Source of the DNA: a virus
Taxonomy: Duplodnaviria; Caudoviricetes
IMG/VR virus record: IMGVR_UViG_3300037423_000850
Span: 1-32,657 of that record
DNA length: 32,657 bases
Strand: one strand, 5' to 3'
Part shown: positions 1 through 28,070 of the stretch, piece by piece
Layout of the letters: the number at the start of each line of letters is the position of its first letter
Position numbering within the stretch: the stretch's first letter is position 1
Made by a program: the position numbers and the translations under genes
The notes under the pieces: model-generated
Database searches by the model: none
What the model was told of the DNA's origin: nothing
The model's input: only the letters and a program-made list of their open reading frames with translations

Positions 1-6
1 TCGGTT

Positions 7-306: not shown

Positions 307-687
307 TCAATCTTCCATGCCGAGCCGCTGCCGCAGCTCGACATATTCGGCCATGCTCATGCGACCAGCGGCGCGATCCTCCGCGATCCACGCCGCGATC
401 AGCTTTCGCAACCGCTTGCGAGCTGCAATTCCCGCGCCCGCGTAGCGGTTGCGGCGATCCCCTCCCCGCGCCTGGCGCTCGGCGATCACCAGCGGCATCG
501 CCTTGCGGCCGCGCACGGTTTGGCGGTTGTGGAACGCCACCCGGTGCGCGTCGCTGCAGAACATTTTCTTGGCGTCTCGCGCCGTGTCGACCGGCCCCAG
601 GCACTCGACGCAGCGGCGGCCCAGGCCCGCCTGGTCGAGGTCGCCGGGCGGCGGTTGGCCGTGTAACACGGCGGGTTGGTCGGTCAT
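307..687 (-). CDS. hypothetical zinc-finger-like protein (126 aa)
   Basis: ATG at 687 overlaps the upstream TGA (ATGA), with GGGGGAG RBS; CVEC...FCSDAHR metal-binding pattern and basic C-terminus. Confidence 0.7.
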   Translation of the reverse strand: MTDQPAVLHGQPPPGDLDQAGLGRRCVECLGPVDTARDAKKMFCSDAHRVAFHNRQTVRGRKAMPLVIAERQARGGDRRNRYAGAGIAARKRLRKLIAAWIAEDRAAGRMSMAEYVELRQRLGMED

Positions 688-942
688 AAGGCAAGCTCCC
701 CCTGTCGTGTCGTCTCGGCTCGCGCGCGAGCGGCGACATTGGCTAGTCCGCAATGGCCGAGCGGGCAAACGCCATAGGCTCCCGCCTGGTCGGCGGCGAT
801 ATCGCGGGCGCGGTGATAGCTGCTCGCCTTGTGGCCGCTCGGTCGCCTGCACGGCGCGCCTGGTCGAGCGCGGCAATCCGGGGAGGATCGGGTCGCGCGG
901 CCATGATTTGCCGCACCCTGGGCGCTGGCAAAAGGCGGTCAT
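684..942 (-). pseudogene. frameshifted small Cys/His zinc-finger protein
   Basis: MTAFCQRPGCGKSWPRDPIL continues after a 1-nt shift near 882 as PDCRARPGAPCRRPSGH...YGVCPLGHCG...ELAL*, ending at TGA 686-684 coupled to the next ATG. Confidence 0.6.
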
Positions 943-1208
943 AGCGATAGCTCCGATTGGCGGGTCAGCCGGATCACTTTCGCAAGGTGGCCGCAAACGA
1001 CGCCGGTCGCCTTCCAGTAGTAAGCTACTGGCCCCTTGTGACGCCGCCAATTCAGCTCGGCTTTCTCGCGGGCGTCGGCCTGGATCGCGAGCAATATCCG
1101 TCGCCACCTAGTGGCCTCCTCCGGCGTCATTTCGGCGAGCGCTTCGACGACGACGGGAAGCGATAGGATCGGGTTGCGGACCTCGCGCCGCGAGCTGCGC
1201 GCGGTCAT
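939..1208 (-). CDS. hypothetical protein (89 aa)
   Basis: ORF with ATGA overlaps at both ends. Confidence 0.75.
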   Translation of the reverse strand: MTARSSRREVRNPILSLPVVVEALAEMTPEEATRWRRILLAIQADAREKAELNWRRHKGPVAYYWKATGVVCGHLAKVIRLTRQSELSL

Positions 1209-1522
1209 AGCAAGCGCGCCCCGGCGTCGTTCGCAAGCTGCAGCTCGCGGGCGAAGCGGGCGATTGCCCGGATGCCGCTCACCGTCTCGTTGTGGACGAT
1301 CTGGAAGCGGAAGCGCGCCCGGTCATAAGCCCGGTCGGCTTCGCGATAGGCGGCCTCGGTTTCGGGGCAGCGGCGGGCGGCGTAGCGTTCGCAAGCTGCG
1401 CGCACCGTCACCGCCGCCGCCTCGGCCTCGGCCTCGGCCGAGCGCCACGTTTCCAGGGCGTCGGCGGAGCTGCGCGGATCGCACCGGCACAGCTCGCCGA
1501 AGTCGAACAGGAGCGCGGTCAT
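1205..1522 (-). CDS. hypothetical protein (105 aa, MTALLFDFGEL...)
   Basis: ATG at 1522 coupled to the upstream stop, with GAGGAG RBS; helical Ala/Arg-rich product. Confidence 0.7.
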   Translation of the reverse strand: MTALLFDFGELCRCDPRSSADALETWRSAEAEAEAAAVTVRAACERYAARRCPETEAAYREADRAYDRARFRFQIVHNETVSGIRAIARFARELQLANDAGARLL

Positions 1523-1938
1523 AGCGCGGTCAGCTCCTCGGCGGCTTCGTCCTCGGCCTCGGCCTCGGCCTGGCCGGTCGCGCATTCGGCGGCGTGGCCG
1601 TCGCTGTCGTCGCGGAAGCACTCGGGGCAGACGTGGACGCCTTTGGGCGGCTCGATCCCGAGCGCCTTGAGCGCGTCGCGGATCACGGCTGCGGCCTCGC
1701 TCCGCGCCTGGTTCATGCCGTCGGCGCAAGCGCTGTCGCAACCGTCGTCCCAATAGCCCTCCTCGCAAACAATGTCGGGGCTGTCGGCGGCGTAGCGGAT
1801 CAGCGCCTTGATCGCGGGAAGGTCGGTGAGCGGCTGCTCAAATCGACGTTGCAGGGCAAGCCGTTCCTCGCCCGTATCGAGCGCAACCAGGCCGCCGAGC
1901 GCGGCGACGATGATTGCTCGTTCCTTTTCGCTGAACAT
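1519..1938 (-). CDS. hypothetical protein (139 aa) with CPEC...H...C motif and acidic tail
   Basis: Shared AGGAGCACCGACC-ATG leader. Confidence 0.75.
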   Translation of the reverse strand: MFSEKERAIIVAALGGLVALDTGEERLALQRRFEQPLTDLPAIKALIRYAADSPDIVCEEGYWDDGCDSACADGMNQARSEAAAVIRDALKALGIEPPKGVHVCPECFRDDSDGHAAECATGQAEAEAEDEAAEELTAL

Positions 1939-2019
1939 GGTCGGTGCTCCTTCTTGATGCGTGGCTGCATCTGGAAAGGCCGCGACCGTGTTACACGGCC
2001 CCGGCCCTTCGGGTTGCAG

Positions 2020-2742
2020 TCAGGCGGTGGCGGGTTCCTCGACCGCTGCACCGTGCTTGTCGCACTCGAACGGCGCATAGCGCTCGTCCTCGGCCAAGCC
2101 GTCAAACTCGCCCGCGACAACATCGCCTTCGCGTTCCAGCTCCTCGCTGCGCTCCTCGGCCTCGGTCAGCTCGATCTGGCCGAGCTGCCAGGCTTTGACC
2201 CGCGCCTTCGCTTCCTCGCCGTCATTGGCGCGAACGACGACGCAATGCCGGTCGCAAGTCGTCGTGTTCTGATAGAAGCGAACGACGAAATGGCGTTCGG
2301 GGAGCGGCTCGGGTGGCGTGTAGTCTATCGACGTTGCGGAAGCTGGCTCCGCCGTCGTGTTGGCGACTGCGCCGTGCGCCGCCTCAATCCGGCTCACGAT
2401 GTGCTCGGCAAGCTCAACTTGCCTCGCGCCCTCGGCTGCGTCGGGATCGCCCGCGCCTTCGTTCTCGATCCAATCGGTTGTGAAGCTGTCGCCGAAGCCT
2501 ACGGCGGCGGCGAGTGCGGCGATCTCGAACGGTGCGAGGCGGATGATCTCGCACGGCTTGCCGTCGATCTCGGCGGCGGCGGCAATGAGCTGCGTTGCGA
2601 GGCTCCGCGCCTGATCGGGGATCAGCTCGAACGTGCCTCGGTTGCCACCCTTGGGGCCGCTGATGCCGACGAAAACGCTCGGTGTCCCGCCTGCGTCGCC
2701 ATAGCCGAGCGCGACGGCGTGGGCGTGTGCTGTCTTGGTCAT
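2020..2742 (-). CDS. hypothetical protein (240 aa, MTKTAHAH...)
   Basis: Shared AGGAGCACCGACCA-ATG leader at 2742; acidic product. Confidence 0.75.
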   Translation of the reverse strand: MTKTAHAHAVALGYGDAGGTPSVFVGISGPKGGNRGTFELIPDQARSLATQLIAAAAEIDGKPCEIIRLAPFEIAALAAAVGFGDSFTTDWIENEGAGDPDAAEGARQVELAEHIVSRIEAAHGAVANTTAEPASATSIDYTPPEPLPERHFVVRFYQNTTTCDRHCVVVRANDGEEAKARVKAWQLGQIELTEAEERSEELEREGDVVAGEFDGLAEDERYAPFECDKHGAAVEEPATA

Positions 2743-2822
2743 TGGTCGGTGCTCCTCTTGTTGTCCGCTGTCGCGGCTAGGCGGGTCGCCATGTAACACG
2801 GCGGCCCGCCAGGGCGAGACAG

Positions 2823-3131
2823 TCAGGCGTAAAAGCTCACGCGTTGCGGCGCTCCATCCCAAAGGCTGGCAAATTCATAGGAGCTGATCCTGACGTAGTT
2901 GCTCCCGGCTCGCAGCTTGCGGCGAAACTCGCCGCTTTTCGCCTGGATAGGTTCGGCGGGGATCACACGGCCCGTCATCCACTGTCCGCCTTCATCGTCG
3001 GTTTGCTTGGCCGCGATCTGCTGCAAGGTGATCCAATCGCCCTTGATCCTGACAACGCGATAGAAATCCACGTTGGTCTGCTCGTAGCCCCAAGAGCTGG
3101 CGAGGATCGCGCCTGGTTGAATGTCGGACAT
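2823..3131 (-). CDS. phage hypothetical protein (102 aa; SSWGYEQTNVDFY motif)
   Basis: GGGGAGG RBS; the motif resembles a recurrent phage early-gene family (from memory, not searched). Confidence 0.75.
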   Translation of the reverse strand: MSDIQPGAILASSWGYEQTNVDFYRVVRIKGDWITLQQIAAKQTDDEGGQWMTGRVIPAEPIQAKSGEFRRKLRAGSNYVRISSYEFASLWDGAPQRVSFYA

Positions 3132-3134
3132 AGC

Positions 3135-3377
3135 TCAAGCCTCCCCGGCTGCGATGGTGCCGACGAACAGCGCCAGAAACGCGACCAGGCCGAGCAGGAT
3201 CGCGCCGCCGTCATGGCCGAAGCGGTTGGCGAGGCCCGCGCCCGTCGCGCTGGCAATGGTCAGGACGGCGCAGAGGATCGCGGCCTGCCTCGCCTCGCGG
3301 CGACGCTGCTGGATCGCGCGCAGCCGCCACCCGGCGCGGTCGGTGTTGCGCCCGAAGGCGGTTGGATCGTGTAACAT
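3135..3377 (-). CDS. small membrane protein (80 aa, two hydrophobic segments)
   Basis: Shared leader; hydrophobic stretches AAILCAVLTIA and AILLGLVAFLALFVG. Confidence 0.7.
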   Translation of the reverse strand: MLHDPTAFGRNTDRAGWRLRAIQQRRREARQAAILCAVLTIASATGAGLANRFGHDGGAILLGLVAFLALFVGTIAAGEA

Positions 3378-3453
3378 GGTCGGTGCTCCTTACGTCCGCG
3401 ACTGTCGCGGCTAGGGCGGCGCGAGGGGAAGCGCGCCGCCCAGGGCGGGACAG

Positions 3454-3732
3454 TCAGTAGCTCGAAACTTCGGCGGCGAGCAGGACATAGCGAAGGCTTA
3501 CGCGGCCCATGCCCGGCGCTTTGATGAAGCTGTCCCGAAGGTTCGAGGCGTTGTAGCGTTCGGAGCGGACGCGGTTGCGAACGCGGAGCCACTGAACATC
3601 GATGTAGGCGAAGGCTTCGGTCAGGGTGGCGAAGCGGTGTGGACTAGAGCAATGGCTGTCCTGCCAAAGCACAAACACGGGGCGGGCGGCGTAGGCGGCT
3701 TGTGCGGTTGCGATTTCTTGACGGTCGGTCAT
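3454..3732 (-). CDS. hypothetical protein (92 aa), first gene of the leftward operon
   Basis: AAGGAGCACAGACCA-ATG leader. Confidence 0.75.
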   Translation of the reverse strand: MTDRQEIATAQAAYAARPVFVLWQDSHCSSPHRFATLTEAFAYIDVQWLRVRNRVRSERYNASNLRDSFIKAPGMGRVSLRYVLLAAEVSSY

Positions 3733-3760
3733 TGGTCTGTGCTCCTTGGTCGGTAAGCGT

Positions 3761-3805
3761 CCCGTAATTCATTTGCGAGACGGTTGCAAGCGCCATGTTA
3801 CACGG
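3761..3805 (-). promoter_or_regulatory. candidate leftward promoter with adjacent palindrome
   Basis: Minus strand: CCGTGTAACATGG, 3 nt, TTGCAA, 17 nt, TACGGG; same architecture as 12704-12748. Confidence 0.5.
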
Positions 3806-4064
3806 CGACCAAAAATCCCTGCCGCGCAGCTCGCGCAGCGAGCGGTGCGCGCGGCTCCATATCCTTCCAACTCGCGGCCCAGGCGGAGCGCAGCGGAGCC
3901 GGTGCGGGCCGCTCTGCATCATTCTCCCTTGAAGCGGATCGATTCCTGCGCCCGCGCCGTCGCTGTCGCTCTGCGTCCGTCTCCCCTGCCCTGCCCTTAT
4001 CCCGCGCCCTTGCGGTCGGGCATGAAATGGGGCACATATGGTCGCTCGCTTCGGGCGCGGGGGT

Positions 4065-4319
4065 TGTTTCCATGTTCCCAACGCTGTTCCCACGTTTGGG
4101 AACAGGCTTACCGAGCGAAATCAGGCACTTAGCGCGGTTGTGGCGCTGTTCCCAAGGGTCGCTGGCGCGGGTCACGTGATCGCGCGTGCTCTTACGCGTG
4201 CGCGTGCGCGTATGGAGAGAGTGATATCTTGGGAACATGGGAACATTCTTCATAAGTCACTGAATTAGCGCGCAAATGCAGTTCCAGCGCTTGGGAACAG
4301 CGTTGGGAACATGGGAACA
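4065..4319. repeat. iteron / inverted-repeat array, probable replication origin
   Basis: TGTTCCCA at 4073, 4085, 4147; TGGGAACA at 4097, 4230, 4238, 4292, 4304, 4312; perfect 22-bp inverted repeat 4071-4092/4292-4313; central CGCGTG tract. Confidence 0.7.
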
Positions 4320-4397
4320 GGGGTCGAAGGCGCAGGGCGGGCATGGTAGGATCGTCCGCGTCGCTCTCGCCGGGGAGCAATAAACTAGGGGGGAATA

Positions 4398-4991
4398 ATG
4401 GCGGACCATCCGTCGCCGGTCGCCGGGGAGATCGAGCAGCTCCGCGATCTGTGCGCGCTGGCCGATCCCGAGCAGCTTGAGCTGATCCGCGACGCGACGC
4501 CTGGGCGCGACGCTCCGACGGCGGTCATCGTCGCCGAGCGGCGAGGCCGGGGCCGCCCGCGCGGCTCGCTCAACAAGCGCAACCAGAAATTCCGCGAGCA
4601 GCTCCTCGCGCTCTACGGGCATCCGGCGGAAGTGCTGGCGCGCGCCGCGTTCACGCCGGTCGAGACGCTGGCGGCGCAGCTCGATTGCTCCAAGGGCGAG
4701 GCGGCGCAGCTCGCGATCCGCGCGGCGGCCGAGCTGCTGCCCTATGTCGAGGGCAAGCAGCCGGTCCAGGTCGAGCTGACCAGGCGCAGCGACGTCGTGC
4801 TGGTCATGGCCGGTGGCGGGGTGAGCGGCGAGACGATCGACGCGATCGCCGAGGACGTGAACGACGCCGCCGCCAGCGGCATCGATTGGGAGACGGCGGA
4901 AATCGGCGACGTGCTGCCGTCGCTGCCGTCTCTTTCGGGTGAACCTTCGCGAGCCGTCTCGCAACAGGGCGGCGCGCAGAGCGGCGACTAG
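4398..4991 (+). CDS. putative terminase small subunit
   Basis: GGGGGAA RBS; RGRGRPRGSLNK motif typical of TerS-like N-termini; acidic tail; lies upstream of TerL. Confidence 0.6.
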   Translation: MADHPSPVAGEIEQLRDLCALADPEQLELIRDATPGRDAPTAVIVAERRGRGRPRGSLNKRNQKFREQLLALYGHPAEVLARAAFTPVETLAAQLDCSKGEAAQLAIRAAAELLPYVEGKQPVQVELTRRSDVVLVMAGGGVSGETIDAIAEDVNDAAASGIDWETAEIGDVLPSLPSLSGEPSRAVSQQGGAQSGD

Positions 4992-5232
4992 GCCGCGATC
5001 CTGCATTTTCGGGCAGCTCTAGACCTTAGCGAGACGGTGAAGCCGGATCGACCCCGGCACCCCCCCCAATCCCGCGCGCGCCGGCTCCTCCCCCCTATCG
5101 CGCTCGATACGCGACCAATTTCGGGCCGAAATCGGCTCCCCACCGGCTGATCGGACCCCTGCCGGGGCGGAACATCGGGAGCGAAAACCGGGGCGCGGGG
5201 CTCGGGTTTTCCACAATCCGCATTGCCGGGGA

Positions 5233-5262
5233 TTGACAACCCCGTTCGCGTGCGGGAAACGT
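5233..5262 (+). promoter_or_regulatory. candidate sigma70-type promoter
   Basis: Perfect TTGACA at 5233-5238 in an intergenic region; weak -10 (GAAACGT). Confidence 0.35.
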
Positions 5263-5311
5263 GGCCTACCCCGCCGACGGGCTGGGGTAAAGACCTGGGG
5301 GGATCCGTTAA

Positions 5312-5701
5312 GTGGATCGAAACGACGCGCGCTTTGCTGCGGACGTGCTCGAGAGGCGACTCTCGGGCGATCGGGAGGCGATTGCGCTTCTCGCCGCGAC
5401 GGAGGCGGTTCGCATAATGGCTGCGGCGGTGGTCCTGAAACGGGCCGCCGCCGACTGCCTCGAAGCGCAGCACGCCGCGCTAGAGCTCGAAGCCGTGATC
5501 CGGCTCGGCGGCGCTGTGTGCGACGTCGAGTGCGACGCAGGCATCAAGAAAATTGTGGATAGTTTGCGCAGGCTGGCCGACGAAGAACCGTCGGAACCGG
5601 CGCCGTGCAACCGGTTTGAGCGCCGGCGCGCATCGAAGGTCCATTTGACCCGATCGCAGCGCCTCCGCGGGATCCGCCCGCGCGACATGGCGATCGTATG
5701 A
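5312..5701 (+). CDS. hypothetical protein (129 aa)
   Basis: GTG start after GGGGGGA; ends in an ATGA overlap. Confidence 0.55.
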   Translation: MDRNDARFAADVLERRLSGDREAIALLAATEAVRIMAAAVVLKRAAADCLEAQHAALELEAVIRLGGAVCDVECDAGIKKIVDSLRRLADEEPSEPAPCNRFERRRASKVHLTRSQRLRGIRPRDMAIV

Positions 5702-5874
5702 ACTTCCTGGCGCCCCTGTGGAGCGGCGGTTTGGCCGACCGCCGAAAGCAAGCAAGCGGGGATCCGGGCCGGGAAGGCGGATCAGAGCGCTCCCGCAACG
5801 GAGCACGCATAAGTACTGGATCCCCGCTCGGCCTGCTCGAGCTGCGGCTGATCGCAGCCGCAGGCCTGCAATGA
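5698..5874 (+). CDS. possible small protein (58 aa, MNFLAPLWSG...)
   Basis: Exactly fills the gap, with ATGA overlaps at both ends. Confidence 0.4.
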   Translation: MNFLAPLWSGGLADRRKQASGDPGREGGSERSRNGARISTGSPLGLLELRLIAAAGLQ

Positions 5875-6113
5875 GCGACGGCACGGTCGCGGCCGACCAG
5901 CTCCGGTTGTTCATCGAGCGCATTGAGCGGCTCGAGGAGGAGGAGCGCGGGATCAGCGGCGACAAGGCCGACGTGTACAAGGAGGCAAAGTCGAACGGCT
6001 ATTGCCCCAAGACCATGCGGAAGATCGTCCGCCTGCGCCGTCTCGAAACGCACACGCGCCAGGAAGAGGACGCGCTGCTCGAAACCTACCGGCAGGCGCT
6101 CGGAATTGGCTAG
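5871..6113 (+). CDS. gapR: GapR/DUF2312-family nucleoid-associated DNA-binding protein (80 aa)
   Basis: VAADQLRLFIERIERLEEE...DVYKEAKSNG...MRKIVRLR...LLETYRQALG is the characteristic family signature. Confidence 0.9.
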   Translation: MSDGTVAADQLRLFIERIERLEEEERGISGDKADVYKEAKSNGYCPKTMRKIVRLRRLETHTRQEEDALLETYRQALGIG

Positions 6114-6302
6114 CCTCGCGCCCTACGCGGGCGCCCCGGCGCCGGCGCGCACGCGAGGGCCGCGCGACATGGTCGGGCTGACGGCGCACCGCGATCTGCT
6201 GGCGGCGATCGGAGATCAGGGCGGGCTGCTGTCGTGGAAATCGTCGCCGCACGTGACGTGGCTCGCCGAGCAGCTCGCGAAGCAACGAAAAGGGGACGGC
6301 GC

Positions 6303-6506
6303 ATGAGCCATGCAATCACGGTCGGCGGCCTGCTGTTGGGGTTGGGCGTCCTCGCCGGGCTTGGCCTGGTTGGCGTCGGCGTGCTGACGGCGTTCGCCGC
6401 CGGCATGGCGAGCGTGCCCGACGAAAAAACGGGCAGAACGGGCTGCATCCTGTTCGTCGTCGGGTTCGTGCTGCTGGTCGGTTGCCTGGTCGGGTTTGCC
6501 GCATGA
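6303..6506 (+). CDS. small membrane protein (67 aa)
   Basis: AGGGGA RBS; two hydrophobic helices. Confidence 0.65.
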   Translation: MSHAITVGGLLLGLGVLAGLGLVGVGVLTAFAAGMASVPDEKTGRTGCILFVVGFVLLVGCLVGFAA

Positions 6507-6727
6507 GCAAGGTCCGGTTCGCGGCAGCGACGATCCGCGAGATTGAGGCGGCAAGAGAGGCCGAGTTCGCCGTCGAGATCGACCGCAACACGCAAAAGAT
6601 GAAGGCGGCCGAGGTGCTCGGCTTCGTCAGCGAGCTTCGCGACCATTATCCGGGTTTTGCGCTCTGGCTCGTCCCGCGGCCGCTGATCAACCAGGTCGGT
6701 TGCATGGCCGCGGTGGTGCGGCTGTGA
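6503..6727 (+). CDS. hypothetical protein (74 aa)
   Basis: ATGA overlap upstream, GTGA overlap with TerL. Confidence 0.6.
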   Translation: MSKVRFAAATIREIEAAREAEFAVEIDRNTQKMKAAEVLGFVSELRDHYPGFALWLVPRPLINQVGCMAAVVRL

Positions 6728-8319
6728 GCATTGCGCAGCTCATGAAGTCGACCGGGCCGGTCGGCGAGCGGTTCCTCAACGACTGGCGGCTGATCACCGG
6801 GATCATGGGGCCGGTCGGGTCGGCGAAAACGACCAAGTGCGTCGCCAAGATGGTGCTGTCGGCGCTCAAGCAGAACCCCGGTCCCGACGGGATCTATCGC
6901 GCCAAGTGGGGCGTCGTCCGCGACACCTATCCGCAGCTCAAGAAAACCGTGCTCGCCACCTGGCACCGCTGGTTCCCGAAAACGATCGGGCAATGGAACG
7001 GCGAGGCGCCCTACGAGCACACGCTGACGATCACGATTTTCGAGGGCGGCCGCAAGAAAGTCGTCGAGCTGACGGTGATCTTCGCTGCGATCGGCGAGAA
7101 CAAGGCCGAGGACGTGATGCGCGGGTGGGAAGTCACCGGGATCTGGCTAAACGAGGGCGATCTCGTCGCGCACGAAGTGTTCGCCTACGCAATGACCCGC
7201 GTCGGCCGCTATCCGAGCTCGAGCCAGGGCGGTTGCCAGTGGCGCGGGCTGATCCTCGATATGAACGCGCCCGATATCGAGAATTGGACCTATGGCGTGT
7301 TCGTCGAAAAGGATCTCGGGCTCGACAAGGAAGTCGAGGACGAGCTGCGCGCCGAGCTCGGCGAGTTGTTCGGGGTCGGCTTCCACGTCCAACCGGGCGG
7401 GCGGTCGAAGAACCCCAGGCCGGAGAACATCGAGAACCTCCCGGCGGGTTACTACGCGCAGCAAGTCATGGCGCTGTCGAAAAAGCCGTGGCTGATCCGG
7501 CGCATGGTCGACAACGAGTTCGGCCCGGTGCGCCACGGCCAGGTCGTGTTCACCGAGTATAACGACGAAGTGCATTGCGCCCGCGACACGATCGAGCCGC
7601 TGCCGGGCGTGCCGCTCAAGATCTCGGCCGACGCCGGAACGACGCCGGCGGCGGTGGTCCGCCAGCGCGATCATCGCGGGCAGATCCGCGTACTCGGCGA
7701 AGTGGTGGCGTTCGCCGAAAACGAGGACGACGAGCTGCAGCAGATGGGCGCGACCGCGTTCGGGAAGCTGGTCGGCCGCTACGTCCGCGACGAGTTCCCA
7801 GGCGCGACCGTGTTCCCGATCGTGCGGGTCGATCCGGCTTCCGCCGCCGGCGAAGGCGCGATGGGCGCCGATCCGAGCTGGCGACAGAATTTCCAGAAAG
7901 GGCTGCGCGAGGAGCTCGGCCCGGATATGCGAGTGAAGAAGTCGCAAGTCGCCAACAACCGGCTCGACGAGCGGCTGCAGTCGGTGCGCGAGCCGATGCT
8001 CAAGCTGGTCGAGGGCGGCGAGCCGGCGTTCATCCTGTGCCCGACGCGGTGCAAGGTGCTGCGCCGCGGCTTCAAGGGTATGTACGTGATCCAGCGCATC
8101 CAGATGCAGGGCGGCTTCGGCCGCTTCCAGGATGCGCCCGCCAAGAACGACTATTCGCACGTCCAGGACGCGCTGCAATATGGCTGCGTCGACGAAAAAC
8201 GGGGCGTCAACGACAATGACGGCGGGAGCGGGCATCCCGGCGCTCGGGCAAGCTCGAGCGGCCGCCGCGAGGTCAAGGTCGAGGGATCCTACGACCGCTT
8301 TTCGGGGAGGCAGGCATGA
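6724..8319 (+). CDS. terL: terminase large subunit
   Basis: Walker A-like GPVGSAKT, VVRDTYPQLKKT, Walker B-like GIWLNE, nuclease ISAD.G.TPA and KNDYSHVQDALQY. Confidence 0.9.
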   Translation: MSIAQLMKSTGPVGERFLNDWRLITGIMGPVGSAKTTKCVAKMVLSALKQNPGPDGIYRAKWGVVRDTYPQLKKTVLATWHRWFPKTIGQWNGEAPYEHTLTITIFEGGRKKVVELTVIFAAIGENKAEDVMRGWEVTGIWLNEGDLVAHEVFAYAMTRVGRYPSSSQGGCQWRGLILDMNAPDIENWTYGVFVEKDLGLDKEVEDELRAELGELFGVGFHVQPGGRSKNPRPENIENLPAGYYAQQVMALSKKPWLIRRMVDNEFGPVRHGQVVFTEYNDEVHCARDTIEPLPGVPLKISADAGTTPAAVVRQRDHRGQIRVLGEVVAFAENEDDELQQMGATAFGKLVGRYVRDEFPGATVFPIVRVDPASAAGEGAMGADPSWRQNFQKGLREELGPDMRVKKSQVANNRLDERLQSVREPMLKLVEGGEPAFILCPTRCKVLRRGFKGMYVIQRIQMQGGFGRFQDAPAKNDYSHVQDALQYGCVDEKRGVNDNDGGSGHPGARASSSGRREVKVEGSYDRFSGRQA

Positions 8320-8501
8320 AACTTTTCGGGCTCAAGACGCCGCACGTTCCGGGGCCAACGCCGATGCCGACCCGCGACGACGCGGCGGATCTCGCCGCGC
8401 GGGAAGATCAGCTCCGCCGGCGCAAGGGCAGCGCGGCCGACCAGATCACCGGGCCGAAAGGCGCCGAAGCCGGATCCGGCGCTGCAACGCTGCTCGGATA
8501 A
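8316..8501 (+). CDS. small virion-associated protein (61 aa)
   Basis: P-rich, RRRKG...TLLG ending typical of the small gene ahead of podovirus portals; GGGAGG RBS. Confidence 0.7.
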   Translation: MKLFGLKTPHVPGPTPMPTRDDAADLAAREDQLRRRKGSAADQITGPKGAEAGSGAATLLG

Positions 8502-8527
8502 AAGGTTCAAACAGGGAGGAAGTGGAC

Positions 8528-9529: not shown

Positions 9530-9547
9530 GTTTCGTCGCGTGGGGGT

Positions 9548-9577
9548 GGCGGCGGCGTTGGGGGCAGCGCCGCCGCC
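9548..9577 (+). terminator. GC-rich stem-loop ahead of the portal gene
   Basis: GGCGGCGGCGTTG-GGGG-CAGCGCCGCCGCC; no U-tract, so function is uncertain. Confidence 0.35.
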
Positions 9578-9603
9578 GATAGTCGGAAGGGGGAGCGTGT
9601 AAC

Positions 9604-11316: not shown

Positions 11317-11345
11317 TGGGCGGCCTGTCGGGATCGAGGCTTTAG

Positions 11346-12696: not shown

Positions 12697-12703
12697 ATCG
12701 CGG

Positions 12704-14469: not shown

Positions 14470-14474
14470 GATCC

Positions 14475-18418: not shown

Positions 18419-18420
18419 AA

Positions 18421-20418: not shown

Positions 20419-23400
20419 TGGCGACCGATCCCGATCGCGCGCTGCACGCCGCACGGGCGGGGCTGTACAAGCCCGGTGCGATCGCGCCCGGTCAGGGCAC
20501 GATCGCCGACACGATCGAGGCGGTGCCCGATCTCAAGCCGGTGCGGCCGACGGCTGCGCCGATCGAGGATCCGGCGAGCCTCGGCGACGTGTTCCACGCC
20601 TCGAGCCAGCTCGCGCAGGACGATAGCAGCGTCGCCGACGATCATCGCATCGCCGAGGGCTATGCACCGATCATCGAAGCGCTCGGCCTTCCGACCAGCG
20701 AGAACCCGGCGGAGTTCGGCGATCTCGACGCCGCCGGCGTCGCCCGGTTCGGCAATGCCGGCGATCGCCTGTCGCAGCTCGCAACCGCCGCCAGGCGCGG
20801 CTCAACCACGTTCGGCAACAGCTACATGGCCGACCGTGCGCTGCAGGAATATCTGGTCGCCGAGCAGATCCGCAAGCGCCGCGCGGCCGATCCCAAGTTC
20901 CTGCCCGGCGTGCCGGATACGGTCGACGGGCTGCACAAATATTTCCTCGAGCGGCAGAAGGCGCGCCGCGCGGCCGACCAGGCGACGCTGGCGAGCGGCC
21001 CCGGCGGGATCAGCGGCTTCGCCGCGCAGCTCGGCGGCGGCGCGGTCGGCACGTTCCACGATCCGCTCAATATCCTGACGCTGCCGCTCGGCGGCGGCGG
21101 CAAGACCTTGCTCGGGATCGCGGCGCGCGAGGCGCTGGTCAACGGGATGCTCGAGCTCGCGCAGCAGCCGATCGTCGCGCACAACCGCGACGAGCTCGGC
21201 GAGCATCTGACCGCCGGCGAAGCGTTGACCAACAGCGCCACGGCGGCGGTCGGCGGGGCGGTGCTTGGCACCGGGCTTCACCTGGGCGGAAAGGCGGCGA
21301 GCCGGTTCGTCGGCAACGTCGATCTTGCCAACAGCCGGGCCTACAAGATCTTCGCGGCGCTGCCGCAGCGGTTGAAGGAAAAATGGGGCGCCGGCGTCGT
21401 GCCCAAGTGGGGCAAGCGCATCGCCGAGGGCGACACGCTCAATGACGTGTTCGGGGAGCTCGACAACCGCGAGCTGGCCGACGTCAGCCGCGAAGTGATC
21501 GGCGCCGACAAAATGAGCCCGGACGAAGCCGCCGCCGGCCATGTGATCGAGCGCGCGCAGGAGGTGAGCGAAAGCTCGCCCTATCAGCCCGGTCCCGCCG
21601 GCGACGGCACCCACGAACAGGGCTTGGCCGCCGCGCTCAAGCAAATCGAGGACGGCGCGGATCCTATAGCCGCTAATGACTATATCGGCCGAGATCCCGC
21701 ACAGCCGGGAACGACTATGCGCGATTCCGCCATAGACGGATCCGGCGATGCGCGATCGCTGAATGAGACAGCCGGGGCGGATCGTTCAGCACCGATCCCG
21801 GCGCGGCCGCGGGGCGCGTCCACCGCTCCGCGGCCGCAATTGCCGGATGAAGCGATCGACCGCTACATCGCGAAAAGCCGCCACGTCGAAAGCAGCGGCA
21901 ACGACGCGGCCGACAATCCGCTCTCCTCGGCCGACGGGCGGTTTCAGATCACCGACGGTACGTTCCGCAGCTATTACCAACGGCTGTTCGGAAGCGACCC
22001 GGGCGCGCACCCGGCGAAGGCGGTCAAGAACGATCCGGCGACCCAGGAAAAGATCATGGCCGCGCTGACGCGTGACAATGCCGCGCACCTGGCGTCGATC
22101 GGCGAGGCGGTCAACGACGGCAATCTCTACCTCGAGCATTTCCTTGGGCAGGGCGACGCGGCCAAGGTGTTCAAGGCCGCCGCCGACACGCCGATCGAGC
22201 GCGTGCTGCCCGAAGCCGTGCTGCACGCCAACCCGTTCCTCAAGGGCAAGTCGGCGTCGGAGACGATCGCCTGGGCGCACGCCAGGATGGGCGCTGCGGT
22301 GCCGTCGGTCGGGGCGAAGCCGGGTTATGCCTCGACCCTCGACGCCGGCGGCGACGATCCGCGCGTGGCGCAGCTCCGCGCCGAGGCGCTGCAGCTCGAC
22401 GACAGTGTGATCGGGGCGACCCGGCGGCTCGATGGATCCCCGGTCAACCTCTATTCGACCCGCGTCGACGCCGGGCGGATCCTCGTCGACGCCGACCGCT
22501 TCCAGTTCAAGAGCGGCGGCGACGCTTCCGGCGTCACCGACCGCCTCAAGGGCGTCAGCGAATGGGATCCGGCGCTGGCCGGGCGGGTGATGCTGTGGGA
22601 GGACGAAGCCGGCAAGCTGTTCGTCGCCGACGGGCACCAGCGCGTCGGGCTCGCCAAGCGGATCGGCGCCGATACGCCGGTCGATGCGATGATCTTCCGC
22701 GCGGCCGACGGGGTGAGCGCCGAGGAAGCGCGCACGCTCGCGGCGTTGAAGAACGTCGCCGAAGGCACGGGCAGCGCGATCGACGCGGCCAAGGTGGTTC
22801 GCGGCGCCGACATGGAGGCGCTGCTCAAGCGGCTTCCGCCCAGGTCGGCGCTGGTCCGCGACGCCGGCGCGCTGGCGCGATTGAGCGACGACGCGTTCGG
22901 CGCAGTCTATAACGGGGTGGTGGCGCCCGATATCGCCGCGGTGATCGGCCATTTGCTGCCGAACAATCCCGAGCAGCACGGCGCGCTGATCGACCTTCTC
23001 GCCAAGACCGACCCGGCGACGCGCGGGCAGGCCGAGAGCATTGTCCGCCAGGGGATCGCCGCCGGCTTCCACCATGAAGTCCAGGACGAATTGTTCGGCG
23101 CGCGCGACGTCGCCAGTTCCTTGATGCTCGAGCGCGCCAAGCTGCTCGAGAAAGGGCTTGCCGAATTGCGGAAAATGCGGTTGGTGCACAAGACCGCCGC
23201 CGAGAACAAGGGCGCGCTCGAGAAGGCGGGATCGACGATCGCCGCGGAGCGCAGCGCAGAGGAGGCACAAGCCAATGCCCAGGCAGTCGAGATCGTCAAC
23301 CGGCTCGCGTTCCGCGGCGGACCCGTCGCCGACGCGCTCGCCAATGGCGGACAGCTCGGACCCCTCGCCCGACAATTCGCCGATGCTGTCCGGGGGCTCG

Positions 23401-23750
23401 ATCTCCGAAAGCTCGATGATGGAAGCGGTGGGGAATTTGATGGAGGCGGACGCCTCGGCGGTGCTGGCGAAGCGGAGCCGGCAGTTCGCGAGGAACAAGC
23501 AGATCGCGAGCAGCCGAGCCTACTCGAGCTAGAGCAGGCCACCGAGCGCTTTTCGGACCCCGACGGGAAGGCGGTTAAGCAGCAGGCGGAAAGCCTGGTG
23601 CATGATCTAAAAGCTGACGTCTCCACAAAGGCGGCTCCATCGCTCGACCGCGACCAGCTCGGGCTCGAGCTCGACGACGAAGCCCGCTCGCTCCTCGACG
23701 AATTGGACGCCGACGACAAGGCGATCAAAGCCATGAAGGATTGTCTGTGA
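20418..23750 (+). CDS. large internal virion protein (1110 aa) with lytic-transglycosylase-like and ParB/Srx-like domains
   Basis: ATG overlaps the upstream TAA; VESSGN...SSADGRFQITDGTF...LYLEHFLGQG; DRFQFK...WDP..AG.VMLWED..GKLFVADGHQR. Confidence 0.75.
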   Translation: MATDPDRALHAARAGLYKPGAIAPGQGTIADTIEAVPDLKPVRPTAAPIEDPASLGDVFHASSQLAQDDSSVADDHRIAEGYAPIIEALGLPTSENPAEFGDLDAAGVARFGNAGDRLSQLATAARRGSTTFGNSYMADRALQEYLVAEQIRKRRAADPKFLPGVPDTVDGLHKYFLERQKARRAADQATLASGPGGISGFAAQLGGGAVGTFHDPLNILTLPLGGGGKTLLGIAAREALVNGMLELAQQPIVAHNRDELGEHLTAGEALTNSATAAVGGAVLGTGLHLGGKAASRFVGNVDLANSRAYKIFAALPQRLKEKWGAGVVPKWGKRIAEGDTLNDVFGELDNRELADVSREVIGADKMSPDEAAAGHVIERAQEVSESSPYQPGPAGDGTHEQGLAAALKQIEDGADPIAANDYIGRDPAQPGTTMRDSAIDGSGDARSLNETAGADRSAPIPARPRGASTAPRPQLPDEAIDRYIAKSRHVESSGNDAADNPLSSADGRFQITDGTFRSYYQRLFGSDPGAHPAKAVKNDPATQEKIMAALTRDNAAHLASIGEAVNDGNLYLEHFLGQGDAAKVFKAAADTPIERVLPEAVLHANPFLKGKSASETIAWAHARMGAAVPSVGAKPGYASTLDAGGDDPRVAQLRAEALQLDDSVIGATRRLDGSPVNLYSTRVDAGRILVDADRFQFKSGGDASGVTDRLKGVSEWDPALAGRVMLWEDEAGKLFVADGHQRVGLAKRIGADTPVDAMIFRAADGVSAEEARTLAALKNVAEGTGSAIDAAKVVRGADMEALLKRLPPRSALVRDAGALARLSDDAFGAVYNGVVAPDIAAVIGHLLPNNPEQHGALIDLLAKTDPATRGQAESIVRQGIAAGFHHEVQDELFGARDVASSLMLERAKLLEKGLAELRKMRLVHKTAAENKGALEKAGSTIAAERSAEEAQANAQAVEIVNRLAFRGGPVADALANGGQLGPLARQFADAVRGLDLRKLDDGSGGEFDGGGRLGGAGEAEPAVREEQADREQPSLLELEQATERFSDPDGKAVKQQAESLVHDLKADVSTKAAPSLDRDQLGLELDDEARSLLDELDADDKAIKAMKDCL
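23344..23532 (+). CDS. possible overprinted ORF (62 aa, MADSSDPSPDNS...)
   Basis: Alternate frame has almost all G/C-ending codons while the main frame becomes A/T-ending; no clear RBS. Confidence 0.4.
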   Translation: MADSSDPSPDNSPMLSGGSISESSMMEAVGNLMEADASAVLAKRSRQFARNKQIASSRAYSS

Positions 23751-23758
23751 TGGGGTGC

Positions 23759-23836
23759 GGCCGCCGACGGGAGTCGAACCCGCTACAGACCAGTCCACTA
23801 GGGAAACCCGCGCTCTATCCGGTGAGCTACGACGGC
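23759..23836 (-). ncRNA. tRNA-like element with non-canonical anticodon arm
   Basis: Acceptor GCCGTCG/CGGCGGC, T8A9, D-arm GCTC-ACCGGATA-GAGC, T-arm GCGGG-TTCGACT-CCCGT; 27-nt atypical central arm. Confidence 0.7.
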
Positions 23837-23874
23837 CGCGCTGGTCGTGTAACACGCTCCCTTGACGGTGATCA

Positions 23875-26349
23875 ATGAGCCTCGACCGCTGCCTCCCGGA
23901 TCTCGAGCGCAAGGGCGAGCTCGATATCGGCCGATCGAAGGAAGCGCGCGAGCTGTACGACGAGCTCAAGCGCTTCTACGGCCGCACCCACGACGACGCG
24001 ACCGCGGCGGCGCTGGCGTCGCAGCGGACGATCGAGCGGCTCGAGGCGGCGGCCGCGCACAAGAAGGCCAATGCGGTGCGCGAGATCCAGCGCCGCCACG
24101 TCGCGCTGTTGAAGATGCGGACCTATGACGGCGGCGATCCCGCCGGCACCGGGCCGGTCGATCCGCGCGGCGCGGTCGCCTTGTTCTCGTTCGACGAGAA
24201 GGCCGGGCACAGCGATACGGTCGAAGCGCGGTGGAAGGCGGTCAAGGGCCAGGCGCACGCGATGGTCGCCGACGTGCTCAACACCTTCCGCCACAACCTG
24301 ATCGGCAATATCCGCAACAAGGCCGAAGCGTTCGACCTGGTGCGCGAGATCTACAAGCCGGGGTCGACCGGCAATGCCAACGCGCGCGAGCTCGGCGAGG
24401 CGTTCACCAAGGCGGCCGAGTGGCTGCGATCGCGCTTCAACGCCGCCGGCGGAGCGATCGGCAAGATCGAAGGCTGGTTCCCGCAGATGCACAACGCGCG
24501 GCTGATCCGCGACGCCGGGTTCGAGGCGTGGCGCGACTTCATCACGCCGCTGCTCGACCGGTCGAAGATCGTCGACCGCCTGACCGGCGAGCCGTTCACG
24601 ACGGAAGCGTTCGAGCCGTTCCTGCGCGGCGTGTGGGAAACGCTGCGCACCGACGGATGGAGCAAGGTCAGCGAAGGCGCAGCCGGCGGCAAGATGCTCG
24701 CCAACCAGCGCGCCGATCACCGCGTGCTGCACTTCGCCGACGGCGACGCCTGGCTCGCCTACAACCAGCGCTTCGGGCAGGGCAATCCGTTCGAGGCGAT
24801 GGTCGGCCATATCGAGGGCATGAGCCGCGATATCGCGCTGATGGAGATCCTCGGCCCCAACCCGGCGGGGTTCATGCGCTGGATCCAGGACGCGATCCGC
24901 AAGTCGGCGCAGCTCGACGCTTCGCCGGGGACCAAGGCGATCGCTCGGGCCGACAAGTACGCGCCGAAGCTGCAGCGGCTCTACGACGAAGTGACCGGGG
25001 CGCTGCGCCGCCCGGAAAGCGAGGCGATCGCGCTCGGCTTCTCGACCTTCCGCGCGGTCCAGACGTCGGCCAAATTGGGCTCGGCGGTGCTCTCGGCGCT
25101 GCCGACCGACCCGGCGTTCGGGGCGATCACCCGGAAGTTCAACGGGATCCCGATGTGGCGCATGGTCGGGAGCTACGCCAAGCAATTGAACCCGCTGTCC
25201 GACGGCGACCGGATGAAGGCGCTGCGATCGGGCCTGATCGGCGAGGAATGGGCGCACATGATGAGCGCCAGCTATCGCTACCTCAACGAGGAAATGACCG
25301 GCGAAGTCGCGCGGCGGATGAGCCAGGCGGTGCTGCGCGCCTCGGGCCTGTCATGGTTCACCCAGGCGGGCCGCTGGGCGTTCGGGATGGACATTCTCGG
25401 CCATTTGACCGCCGAGAGCCACAAGAGCTTCGGCGAGCTCGACGGCGCGCTGCAGCGGGCGTTCCAGCGCCACGGCATCACCCCGGACCATTGGGACGTC
25501 ATTCGCAAGGCGCCGCTCGAGGTGCACGCCGGGGCAGGCTGGATCTATCCGCACAACGTCGAGGACCGTTCGGCGGGCGGAGCGGCCGACAAGCTGCTGC
25601 AGTTCATCCACACCGAAGTCAATTTCGCGGTGCCGACGGCGGACCTCGAGACGCGAGCGATGATCAACGGCAACCTCCCGCGCGGGACGTGGACCGGCGA
25701 GCTGCTGCGATCGGGCTTCCTGTTCAAGACGTTCGGGATCTCGGTCATTCTGATGCACGGCCGCCGGATGCTCAATCGCAACCTTCCGGGAACGATGGGC
25801 TATGCCGCGGCGCTGGTCGCGCTGACCATGCTCGGCGGCGCGGCCGCGCTCGAATTGAAGGAAGTCGCCAAGGGCAAGGATTGGCGGCCGTTTCCCAAGG
25901 GCGCGCAGGACCGGGCGAAGTTCGTCGGCGCGGCAATGGCGCAGGGTGGCGGCTTCGGCATCTTCGGCGACTTCTTCTATTCGGGCACCAACCGCTTCGG
26001 CGGCGGCTTCGCGGGAACGCTCGCCGGGCCGCAGGCGGGCACCGCGCAGAACGTGTTCAACCTCGGCTACAGCACCGCCAACCGCTACGTGTTCGGCGAC
26101 AGAAAGGCGCGGCCAGGGCGCGACGTGGTGACGCTGCTGCGCCAGGAAACGCCGGGCTCTAGCCTGTGGTTCTCCCGCGTTGCATTTGAACGCGAAATAG
26201 CGGATCAATTGCAGGAGGAGCTCGACCCGAAATATCGGGAGAGCTGGCGTGTTACACGGCGCAATGCGCGCAAGCAGGGACAGGATTTCTGGTGGGAGCC
26301 TGGCGCGACGGCGCCGAAGCGGGCTCCCCGGCTTGGGGGGGATCAATGA
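23875..26349 (+). CDS. internal virion (ejection) protein (824 aa)
   Basis: WFPQMH, HRVLHFADGDAWLAYNQRFG, RDIALMEILGPNP, QGGGFGIFGDF motifs; last gene before the fibre. Confidence 0.75.
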   Translation: MSLDRCLPDLERKGELDIGRSKEARELYDELKRFYGRTHDDATAAALASQRTIERLEAAAAHKKANAVREIQRRHVALLKMRTYDGGDPAGTGPVDPRGAVALFSFDEKAGHSDTVEARWKAVKGQAHAMVADVLNTFRHNLIGNIRNKAEAFDLVREIYKPGSTGNANARELGEAFTKAAEWLRSRFNAAGGAIGKIEGWFPQMHNARLIRDAGFEAWRDFITPLLDRSKIVDRLTGEPFTTEAFEPFLRGVWETLRTDGWSKVSEGAAGGKMLANQRADHRVLHFADGDAWLAYNQRFGQGNPFEAMVGHIEGMSRDIALMEILGPNPAGFMRWIQDAIRKSAQLDASPGTKAIARADKYAPKLQRLYDEVTGALRRPESEAIALGFSTFRAVQTSAKLGSAVLSALPTDPAFGAITRKFNGIPMWRMVGSYAKQLNPLSDGDRMKALRSGLIGEEWAHMMSASYRYLNEEMTGEVARRMSQAVLRASGLSWFTQAGRWAFGMDILGHLTAESHKSFGELDGALQRAFQRHGITPDHWDVIRKAPLEVHAGAGWIYPHNVEDRSAGGAADKLLQFIHTEVNFAVPTADLETRAMINGNLPRGTWTGELLRSGFLFKTFGISVILMHGRRMLNRNLPGTMGYAAALVALTMLGGAAALELKEVAKGKDWRPFPKGAQDRAKFVGAAMAQGGGFGIFGDFFYSGTNRFGGGFAGTLAGPQAGTAQNVFNLGYSTANRYVFGDRKARPGRDVVTLLRQETPGSSLWFSRVAFEREIADQLQEELDPKYRESWRVTRRNARKQGQDFWWEPGATAPKRAPRLGGDQ

Positions 26350-27593
26350 CGGTAGCCACCTACGCGGCGCAACCGCCGCGCGACGATATTGTCGAGGACG
26401 GCGTTACGACCGTTCACTCGATCCCGTTCAAGTTCTTCGATGCGGCGGAGATCGTCGTCACCCGGATCCTGGTCGACGGAACCGAGATCCTGCTCGCGCA
26501 GCCGACCCACTACAGCGTCACCGGCGGCGCGGTCGACGGGGTTGCGGCGCTGGGATCGATCACCAAGGTCAACGGCGGGATCGACGGCGCGACGCTGCGC
26601 ATCGACCGCAACACGGCGCTTAGCCAGCTCGTCGTCTATGACCCGACCGACGACTTCCCGGCGCGCAGCCACCAGGAAGCAATCGACCGCCTGGAAATGC
26701 AGATCCAGGAGATCCGCCGCGACCTGATCACCCGCGCCGACGTGGTTGCGATCATCCTCGCGACCCTGATCCCCGGAACCGGGATCGACTTCGACGTCGA
26801 CGAGGAAGGCGGGACGATCACGATCAACAACACCATGCTTGACCCGGCGGTGCTGGCGCAGACGATCTACAATATCCTCAACGAAGGCGCCGGGATCGAT
26901 ATCACCCTCGACGAGATCCGCAACCTGATCACGATTACCGCCGCGCAGCTCGACGATCTGCCCGATTGCGTGATGCTGTCGGGCGACCAGCAAACCTATG
27001 ACGGCGCGTTCGCCGGTTCGGGCGGGTCGGGCCTGACCACCGAGGACGTGCAGGATATCGTCGGCGGGATGATCCTCAACGGAACCGGGATCACCAAGGC
27101 GTACGACGATACCGCCGGCACGCTGACGATCGGCTGCTCGGTGACGCCGTACACCGACGAACAGGCGCGCGACGCGCTCGGCACAGCGCTTCAATCCGGG
27201 ACGCTGATCGCGCTGGTCGACGACGACGCCGGCGACCATATCACGATCAACTCGACCGCGCTCGCGCCGGCCTATGCCGGCGTGGTTCCGGCGGACCATG
27301 CCGGTGCGTTCGCCTTCACCAACGCGATGAACGGCCTGTCGACCAACTGGACCGGCGGAGCGGCCGCGATCACGATCGATCCCGAAGCGACGACTGCGCT
27401 GGCCGACGGTTGGGCGCACGTCGTGCGCAACAATGGCTCGGCCGCGATCACGATCCATCGCGGCGCCGGGGTCAGCCTCCACGTCAACGGCGCAACCGCG
27501 TCGGCCGACGCGACGATCGCGGTCGGCGGGGTGGCGACGATCAACCGCTGGGGCGACGACGATTTCACGATCGTCGGACCGGGTGTTTCGTGA
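26346..27593 (+). CDS. tail fibre protein with T7 gp17-like N-terminal anchor (415 aa)
   Basis: DGVTTVHSIPFKFFD...LRIDRNT...FPARSHQEAIDRL anchor motif followed by repeated modules. Confidence 0.8.
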   Translation: MTVATYAAQPPRDDIVEDGVTTVHSIPFKFFDAAEIVVTRILVDGTEILLAQPTHYSVTGGAVDGVAALGSITKVNGGIDGATLRIDRNTALSQLVVYDPTDDFPARSHQEAIDRLEMQIQEIRRDLITRADVVAIILATLIPGTGIDFDVDEEGGTITINNTMLDPAVLAQTIYNILNEGAGIDITLDEIRNLITITAAQLDDLPDCVMLSGDQQTYDGAFAGSGGSGLTTEDVQDIVGGMILNGTGITKAYDDTAGTLTIGCSVTPYTDEQARDALGTALQSGTLIALVDDDAGDHITINSTALAPAYAGVVPADHAGAFAFTNAMNGLSTNWTGGAAAITIDPEATTALADGWAHVVRNNGSAAITIHRGAGVSLHVNGATASADATIAVGGVATINRWGDDDFTIVGPGVS

Positions 27594-27997
27594 GCGCTGG
27601 CTCGATCATGCCACATTTCGTTCCGTCGGCGATCGTCGACGGCGCGATCACCTTTGTCGGAACCTCGGTCGACGGCACGCAATATGCGGAATGGACGATC
27701 TCGTTCGACGGTTTCACTTATGAACGCGATACCGCCGGCGCAGCCGACCAGGCCGCCGCGTGGATCGACCCGCAAGTCGGAATGGGATTGTACCAGGTCC
27801 GCGCGACGCTGGTCAGCGGTCGCCCGCCGGCGGGCACGTTCGGAACCTGGCTCCCGCTGTCGGATGCGTGGACTTGGGGCTACGCGGGCGCAACCACTGA
27901 GAAAGAGTGCAACATCACGATCGAGATCCGCCGCGCGAGCGACGGGGTGATCGTCGGCAGCGGGTCGGTGGATCTGCTGGTGACGGGCATCGAATGA
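27590..27997 (+). CDS. fibre-associated hypothetical protein (135 aa)
   Basis: GTGA overlap with the fibre stop; beta-rich. Confidence 0.65.
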   Translation: MSAGSIMPHFVPSAIVDGAITFVGTSVDGTQYAEWTISFDGFTYERDTAGAADQAAAWIDPQVGMGLYQVRATLVSGRPPAGTFGTWLPLSDAWTWGYAGATTEKECNITIEIRRASDGVIVGSGSVDLLVTGIE

Positions 27998-28070
27998 GCT
28001 AGCGGCCATGTAACAGGGCGCGCCGTCCCGACGGGGACGCGAAGGCGCGCCACCTGGGGGGGAAGCGTAA

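Follow-up and report, generated by a model that had tools for sequence, protein, structure and literature searches.

Palindromic sites dispersed over the genomes of phages of Sphingomonas and Caulobacter relatives are very probably bound by a zinc-finger protein, with a likely repressive role

The virus contig IMGVR_UViG_3300037423_000850 of the IMG/VR collection contains thirteen palindromic sites with the core CRTGTWACAYG, which are distributed over its early and late genes. The window analyzed here is the entire contig of 32,657 bp (approximately 67% GC), and it encodes a podovirus structural module with terminase, T7-like portal, capsid, tail tubes, virion proteins, and endolysin. The initial annotation described the sites and held that their binder was not identifiable in the window. 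We found a strong candidate, the zinc-finger protein encoded by the open reading frame (ORF) at positions 307–687 of the minus strand, which has the site at 659 in its first codons. This protein very probably binds the palindromes. The assignment is based on sequence comparisons, which establish the array, selection on its DNA, and symmetric recognition, and show that gene and array occur together, that a self-site marks the start of the gene, and that operator bases co-vary with protein residues. The palindromes are probably operators of an autoregulated dimeric repressor with a mainly repressive and self-limiting function, although zinc binding, dimer formation, direct binding, and the repressive outcome are inferred. 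Genome-wide control of this kind, likely repressive, would operate in phages of Sphingomonas and Caulobacter relatives.

Twelve of the thirteen sites in the 32.7 kb match the core exactly, and one is a variant. No exact match was generated in 100 dinucleotide shuffles of the window, and an order-3 Markov model predicts 0.015 cores. The heptamer TGTWACA occurs thirteen times, always within a site, compared to a shuffle mean of 0.24 and a maximum of 2. The sites extend over 27 kb at spacings of 0.4–5.8 kb, and the positions and the division into six intergenic, two start-codon, and five coding sites given by the initial annotation were reproduced. One-mismatch matches at 20588 and 28271, the inner symmetry of which is broken, were left out of the site count; the former also because it is located on TTC CAC codons common to relatives without a site there.

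Five sites are positioned along a leftward early operon (7–3732, minus strand) of small genes, which contains the zinc-finger gene near its distal end. Site 1 (659–671) occupies codons 6–10 of the zinc-finger gene, where it encodes V-L-H and would serve as the self-operator. Sites 2 (1986–1998) and 3 (2789–2801) are intergenic, approximately 49 bp ahead of the start at 1938 and, in a cassette, approximately 48 bp ahead of the start at 2742, respectively. Site 4 (3367–3379) lies over the start codon of ORF 3135–3377 of the minus strand (ATG TTA CAC). The core of the intergenic site 5 (3793–3805) is 4 bp upstream of TTGCAA (3789–3784, minus strand), the putative promoter of the leftward early operon, and this placement is repeated in the related phage records G001 and G006. 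The other eight sites belong to the late region and its modules. Site 6 (9595–9607) is situated between the ribosome-binding site and the start codon of the portal gene and is counted as a start-codon site. The core of the intergenic site 7 (12704–12716) is 4 bp upstream of TTGACA (12720–12725), part of a putative promoter ahead of the major capsid gene. The intergenic site 11 (23845–23857) is 19 bp ahead of the start at 23875, and the intergenic site 13 (28006–28018), which has one mismatch, precedes the lysis cassette with the endolysin gene at 28661–29185. Four modules, for the portal, the capsid, the last virion proteins, and lysis, have a site at their entry. The remaining four are within genes: site 8 (16692–16704) at codon 481 of tail tubular protein B, site 9 (17598–17610) at codon 34 of ORF 17502–17951, site 10 (19581–19593) at codon 388 of ORF 18421–20418, and site 12 (26247–26259) at codon 792 of ORF 23875–26349, 88 bp ahead of the tail-fiber start. 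The promoters proposed at the array sites were not called in a sigma-70 scan.

The five coding sites use all three phases and rare codons; TTA accounts for three of the 846 leucine codons of the window, and two of these three are in sites. Resampling of codons with the proteins kept unchanged (300 runs, maximum of 1) gave 0.017 intragenic cores compared to the five observed, and in G001 the expectation is 0.19 compared to ten observed. These numbers support the proposal that the intragenic copies reflect selection on the DNA rather than on the protein. G001 also has sites 16692 and 17598, in proteins that are 51–56% identical there, and the two records differ in these sites at degenerate motif positions only (GTT/GTA and CCG/CCA). 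The site-free relatives have Ile at site 16692, where the window and G001 have Val, and G005 and G006 have Ala instead of Cys at site 17598 and no site. The peptide RVTW at site 19581 is identical in G005 but is encoded with three other codons, and the site is absent. Site 26247 is private to the window and missing from six relatives. Therefore, sites are gained, kept, and lost individually.

The candidate binder is a 126-residue basic protein (pI 10.3) with the pattern C26-x2-C29...C44-x3-H48, the four putative metal ligands of which are invariant in all 44 aligned sequences. An AlphaFold model (pLDDT 86) has a disordered N-terminus, a small finger, and helices at residues 46–72, 83–106, and 112–121. 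The protein matches a single PHROG, phrog_20494 of unknown function, and has no significant match in Pfam, NCBIfam, PDB sequences (0 matches), or folds, and none to helix-turn-helix (HTH) or ParB families. A Foldseek search of the PDB gave no match at E ≤ 0.001, the best VIA-align score for the whole-protein model (Z of 6.4) covers helices only, the matches in BFVD are solely uncharacterized phage proteins, including a homologue from the phage Kronos, and the top ESM Atlas clusters have no Pfam assignment. Weak matches to YacG were obtained for two of the 44 members (best E of 0.011) and to zf-tcix for one (E of 0.0015). The finger may be of the treble-clef YacG/FCS type, with which it shares the C-x2-C...FC-x3-(C/H) spacing, although all the matches are weak. 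YacG is a gyrase inhibitor, and the family differs from it in an additional basic helix of 27 residues and in a C-terminal pair of helices with conserved D-R-x-A-G-R-M residues. The protein has 340 relatives, and those named among the 120 listed are labeled as hypothetical. A search of the full texts available found no description of the zinc-finger family or of the motif in phages. One homologue is located on a Thalassospira megaplasmid (L093, 2893–3237), where it is annotated as a transcriptional regulator beside DUF736 and DUF87 genes, which suggests that the family is also present on non-phage elements.

The association of the protein with the palindrome is evident at the start of its own gene. 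From 45 homologue loci, two duplicates and one unparsable locus were removed. A palindrome of the form C-N-T-x-y-N-y'-x'-A-N-G is present 45–125 bp before the first cysteine codon in 33 of the remaining 42 loci, compared to 3.2% of control windows. Homologues retain it in two reading frames and both orientations, encoding VLH or CNT, and most have one site, at their own start. Comparison of sequences further shows that the operator bases co-vary with residues 50, 53, and 54 at the beginning of the first long helix, which are Val, His, and Asn in the window protein. In the 35 loci with a scored palindrome, Asn54 is accompanied by T at ±1 in 26 of 26 cases and other residues in none of nine, and Lys or Arg at position 50 is accompanied by a base other than G at ±2 in six of seven cases, other residues in none of 28. 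In a tree of 41 rows, from which five duplicate or near-identical loci were left out, the TGG operator arises twice, in the 100/99 clade and in L069 within the 97/97 clade, each time with the loss of Asn. An out-of-sample set of 130 proteins outside the loci contains 93 with an operator-type peptide, from which the operator was read. In this set, Lys or Arg50 occurs with a TCTTAGA-type peptide in seven of nine proteins as opposed to none of 84, and a residue other than His or Asn at position 53 occurs with C at ±3 in five of ten as opposed to three of 83. The variant CRTCTWAGAYG is found in three of 23 records, twice in each, and these are exactly the three with Arg50 and Asn54. Natural homologues with Asp54 or Arg50, L051 and L052 among them, have TGGACCA or TCTTAGA, respectively, as their predicted sites.

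The symmetry of the site fits a two-fold symmetric protein on duplex DNA, in agreement with the dyad noted in the initial annotation. The ±1 bases are complementary in all 35 scored self-sites (TA in 26, GC in 8, AT in 1), even though bases around a one-base loop would be unable to pair in RNA. Several intergenic sites are at the tips of longer inverted repeats and several overlap start codons, as would be expected if they acted as mRNA hairpins in translational control or termination. However, in the 50 array sites that can be oriented, A·C mismatches of the sense strand (14) are as common as G·U wobbles (15), the central base is A in 29 and T in 21 with no strand preference, the unpairable ±1 bases change symmetrically, and a search of Rfam gave no match. 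We consider the hairpin function extremely improbable.

A host regulator could also read the sites. One study (PMC3586657) reports TGTWACAW as a motif of the OmpR protein of Salmonella, present in twelve ChIP peaks and required for binding at tviA. In the phage sites, however, the base after ACA is C or T. The 11-bp core occurs 0–1 times in each of five sphingomonad-type genomes of 3.3–4.7 Mb, compared to 3–5 occurrences of a reversed control, and one of the three matches is a prophage self-site. In these genomes, the counts of the 11-bp core give no sign of the enrichment at host promoters that belongs to an OmpR regulon. Furthermore, the sister phage G007 has no site, and the operator changes together with the phage protein. 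Binding by a host factor is largely excluded and, in our estimation, highly improbable.

The gene and the array occur together. G001, G005, G006, and G007 (within L020–L031) form a clade of podoviruses, 41–43 kb in size, that encode a small serine resolvase along with a Cro-like protein and in which no cI or integrase was recognized. Six-frame profile searches identified the zinc-finger gene in G000, G001, G005, G006, G010, and G020, and did not find it in G002, G007, G008, and G009. Whole records contain 12 cores in G000, 18 in G001, 10 in G006, 6 in G005, and 2 in G010, and G020 has 10 copies of TGTWACA. The core count is zero in G007, G008 (a record that is 85% complete), G009, G014, and the partial records G011–G013. 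Among members of the podovirus clade compared over their whole length, the gene is present in all four with sites and in none of the three without. The best control is G007, which is complete and has the same resolvase and Cro-like layout, neither the gene nor any TGTWACA. A promoter-linked 18-mer scan of viral contigs returned three loci with one site each; the locus in G002, the record compared as a whole, has no zinc-finger gene with it and was taken as chance. The nine copies of CGAGCWGCTCG in G007, all in one frame, were dropped as an array.

Two other proteins had been put forward as binders, and the distribution of their genes speaks against both. A virion protein (20418–23750) contains a transglycosylase-like stretch followed by a ParB/Srx-like DGHQR motif without a Pfam match, and the protein gave no ParB match in Pfam at E up to 1. 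It has orthologues in the site-free G007, G008, and G009. Pfam searches gave no ParB match in the 41 window proteins scanned or among the scanned genes of the complete relatives. The GapR-like gene (5871–6113; PF10073, E of 2e-30) is present in G005 and G006 but was not identified in G001, where there are 18 sites.

Arrays also occur in unrelated phages. Kronos and W2, two siphoviruses of Caulobacter, have a homologue (at 25206–25772 in Kronos) whose helix contains the same His-Asn-Arg residues, and six and seven copies of TGTWACA, respectively, one of which lies between TTGATC and TATAGA hexamers of a putative promoter, 58 bp before the zinc-finger gene. The Rauchvirus phages Jess A (L086) and BL94 (L087) have no TGTWACA but six and seven copies of CCTWAGG, one of them 52 bp before the zinc-finger start. 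The CRCCTWAGGYG-type sites of Jess A, at 2244, 4181, 12510, 20202, 26918, and 35296, are found ahead of terS and of the zinc-finger gene, between two late genes, and within a primase, a polymerase, and a virion gene. We predict that this array is the operator of gp35 in Jess A and gp34 in BL94. In a blind scan of 128 palindrome classes, the self-site class ranks first in each of the four phages. No integrase or cI is annotated in the Kronos and Jess A records. The 20 copies of GCCCWGGGC in Jess A were dropped, since their contexts suggest a coding word. A distant homologue in phiCbK, gp144 (L090, 1387–1800), is encoded directly behind the putative tyrosine recombinase gp143 and is kept in CcrRogue and Bajun.

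The history of the array can be read from relatives with few sites. Among the 33 viral records with the gene, 29 have 0–2 copies of TGTWACA, and more are present in G020 (10), G022 (5), G025 (3), and G051 (3). Where such records have a second site, it is within a primase or virion gene or a short distance downstream of a capsid gene. Of the 39 loci with scanned downstream genes, 25, two of them duplicates, are followed within 3.5 kb by an integrase of the tyrosine or large serine type. The ancestral role was likely that of a local self-limiting brake, because integrating relatives have the gene just upstream of the integrase and usually one to three sites. The best reading is that this single operator was multiplied in non-integrating phages, probably three times independently, in the clade of the window, the Kronos group, and the Jess A group, in which no integrase was found or annotated.

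Based on these comparisons, a mechanism can be proposed. The incoming DNA would be free of the zinc-finger protein, and the leftward operon would fire. The product of the near-distal gene would accumulate after infection and bind the palindromes as a dimer on double-stranded DNA. It may fill the five early-operon sites, which are promoter-proximal, on start codons, and in its own first codons, as well as the eight late-region sites at the portal start, the capsid leader, the lysis entry, and inside four genes. Blocked initiation and roadblocked elongation would then lead to repression of the early operon, including the zinc-finger gene itself, and of the late modules. Sites are present on start codons, in the interior of genes, and within the first codons of the zinc-finger gene, and these positions argue for repression by occlusion and roadblock; repression also fits the sites downstream of capsid genes in temperate relatives. 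Of the two roles offered for a dimeric binder by the initial annotation, silencing and anchoring, silencing is the better option, although still deduced.

The positions of individual sites could be explained in other ways. Only 4 bp separate the cores at 12704 and 3793 from TTGACA and TTGCAA, respectively, as would suit a class II activator, and the early placement also occurs in G001 and G006. The same protein could therefore be an early-to-late switch that represses early genes and activates late promoters from just upstream of the -35 element, for which we take phi29 p4 and P2 Ogr as models. However, the capsid leader lacks a site in G001, G005, and G006, four window sites are deep in late genes, and TTG hexamers adjoin five of 59 sites, near the 5% background. 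Moreover, KorB represses from such a position (PMC11790492), and we regard the switch as unlikely. Alternatively, the protein could replace an immunity repressor and act as the master silencer of a non-integrated carrier state in phages that have a resolvase and lack cI and integrase. The records of G001, G005, and G006 are complete and encode a small serine resolvase as well as a short Cro-like HTH protein, with no integrase or cI found among the genes scanned, and the window sites at the module entries would suit such a silencer. However, G007 has the same layout with neither the gene nor the sites, the structural genes of G005 and G006 are free of sites, no partition genes were recognized, and the protein would be turning off the very operon in which its gene is distal. 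A carrier-state silencer is accordingly rather improbable. The unoriented palindromes, dispersed over the window and turning over in position between relatives, could also organize or anchor the phage DNA by bridging, similarly to matS or parS, instead of acting on transcription. Such an organizer is very unlikely, considering that most homologues have a single site at their own start, early operons and start codons are where the sites concentrate, and the family has no match to ParB or another known fold.

Several observations weigh against an autoregulated repressor with multiplied operators. The 33 self-sites were identified using a pattern defined on those same loci, some of which are near-identical, and nine of the 42 loci, including that of G006, have no called self-site. 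The co-variation counts take in related sequences, and the base of the tree is weakly resolved, with 15 of 38 inner branches open. The residue code has exceptions in L076 (Lys50 with G at ±2), P0075 (Lys50 with a TGTTACA peptide), and Jess A (C at ±2 without Lys or Arg50). The absence of enrichment of TTG hexamers next to the sites counts here as well. G010 has the gene and a resolvase yet only two sites, and G007 has neither the gene nor sites; the system is therefore dispensable for this genome type. In genomes with distant homologues, TGTWACA occurs 0 times in phiCbK, CcrRogue, and R6L and once in Bajun, and neither phiCbK nor R6L has a clear array of another kind, which limits the claim. 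The window is probably short of approximately 11 kb, because its capsid relatives, at 77–88%, are on contigs of 22–44 kb that reach 41–44 kb, and the missing part would leave room for other regulators. For the whole family, binding and repression are predictions from sequence comparison.

The initial annotation compared the array to mycobacteriophage stoperators. Cluster A mycobacteriophages such as L5, Bxb1, and TipsytheTRex have many 13-bp sites genome-wide, few of them at promoters, and the motif varies with the cognate repressor (PMC9283540, PMC6550527). The number of dispersed short sites, thirteen in the window and 18 in G001, is above the approximately ten of the L5 type. However, stoperators are described as asymmetric, oriented with transcription, and mostly in short intergenic regions, and their binder is the immunity repressor of temperate phages, an HTH protein that has two domains and acts as a monomer (PMC9283540). 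In the L5-type system, the repressor on its sites halts elongation and confers immunity. The sites of the window are dyads without orientation bias in the central base, five of the thirteen are in genes, and they occur in phages without an identified integrase. The candidate, with its C2-C-H pattern and its three long helices, matches neither the HTH nor the Stoperator-domain type. Therefore, the array does not belong to the stoperator family, whatever the resemblance.

Other systems share part of the logic. Reg576 of plasmid p576 is an autoregulated repressor with several operators (PMC6294495), the genes of which are induced upon entry and stay on until the repressor accumulates. It is, however, a ribbon-helix-helix protein at four promoters of a conjugative plasmid, different from a phage zinc finger with late and coding sites, and the predicted secondary structure and conserved Cys/His pattern of the candidate do not agree with a ribbon-helix-helix. 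Control of its own gene by the candidate would fit the self-sites, and an ArdC-type gene is present in the early operon of a related phage. KorB of RK2 exerts global repression from dispersed OB operators, some 4–10 bp upstream of promoters and some far away, but is a ParB-family CTP clamp that needs KorA (PMC11790492). The candidate has 126 residues and no ParB match. Further likenesses are to the conserved inverted repeats of phiC31, which are palindromic phage-wide sites, to matS, a dispersed 13-bp palindrome in coding DNA, and to Ogr, a phage zinc finger that reads TGT...ACA with a different spacer and C4 pattern. No match in Pfam, NCBIfam, PDB sequences, or folds connects the candidate to the proteins of phiC31 repeats, Ogr, p4, or MatP.

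The regions around the array have additional repeated elements. A ribosome-binding cassette of the AGGAGCACCGACC-N-ATG type precedes leftward small genes five times (225–243, 1934–1952, 2739–2757, 3373–3391, and 3729–3747), in two cases with a longer common hairpin leader (2743–2826 and 3377–3457), a layout that recalls cassette-like early or establishment regions. An inverted repeat GTCTC-N14-GAGAC (3763–3783), perfect in G001 and G006 and imperfect in the window, overlaps the putative early promoter and is possibly a second operator, for example for the Cro-like protein. Nine GGGAAC/GTTCCC words, with a 92-nt inverted arrangement, are clustered at 4065–4320 between the early promoter and a likely small terminase gene. 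Clusters of 11, 12, and 8 words occur in G001, G006, and G005, respectively, and of three in G007, and the element is possibly an origin, packaging, or resolvase site. The contig is contained in soil sequencing runs, with no RNA run among those listed. Contigs from four runs compared to positions 1–20000 of the window were either pieces without differences or short distant pieces. A nucleotide search with positions 6700–24000 gave no match among cultured phages, and alignment of the capsid to GTDB genomes identified no prophage.

If the assignment is correct, it provides a DNA target and a residue-to-base code for a family labeled hypothetical and without a solved relative. Dispersed repressor arrays are known from actinobacterial phages with HTH proteins, and phages of alphaproteobacteria would have arrived independently at a zinc-finger version, in a family that documents all the stages between a single site and 18. 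We speculate, with considerable doubt, that these proteins are a new zinc-finger transcription factor family with a three-residue code, in which a one-site brake on excision and integration repeatedly became a genome-wide master repressor after the loss of cI and integrase. It would have placed operators in structural genes despite amino-acid changes, and would maintain a silent non-integrated state and exclude competitors with the same sites. Homologues and predicted sites in the cultured phages Kronos, W2, Jess A, and BL94 make binding, timing, and immunity testable, and the natural variants with orthogonal 11-bp operators are potential compact regulators.

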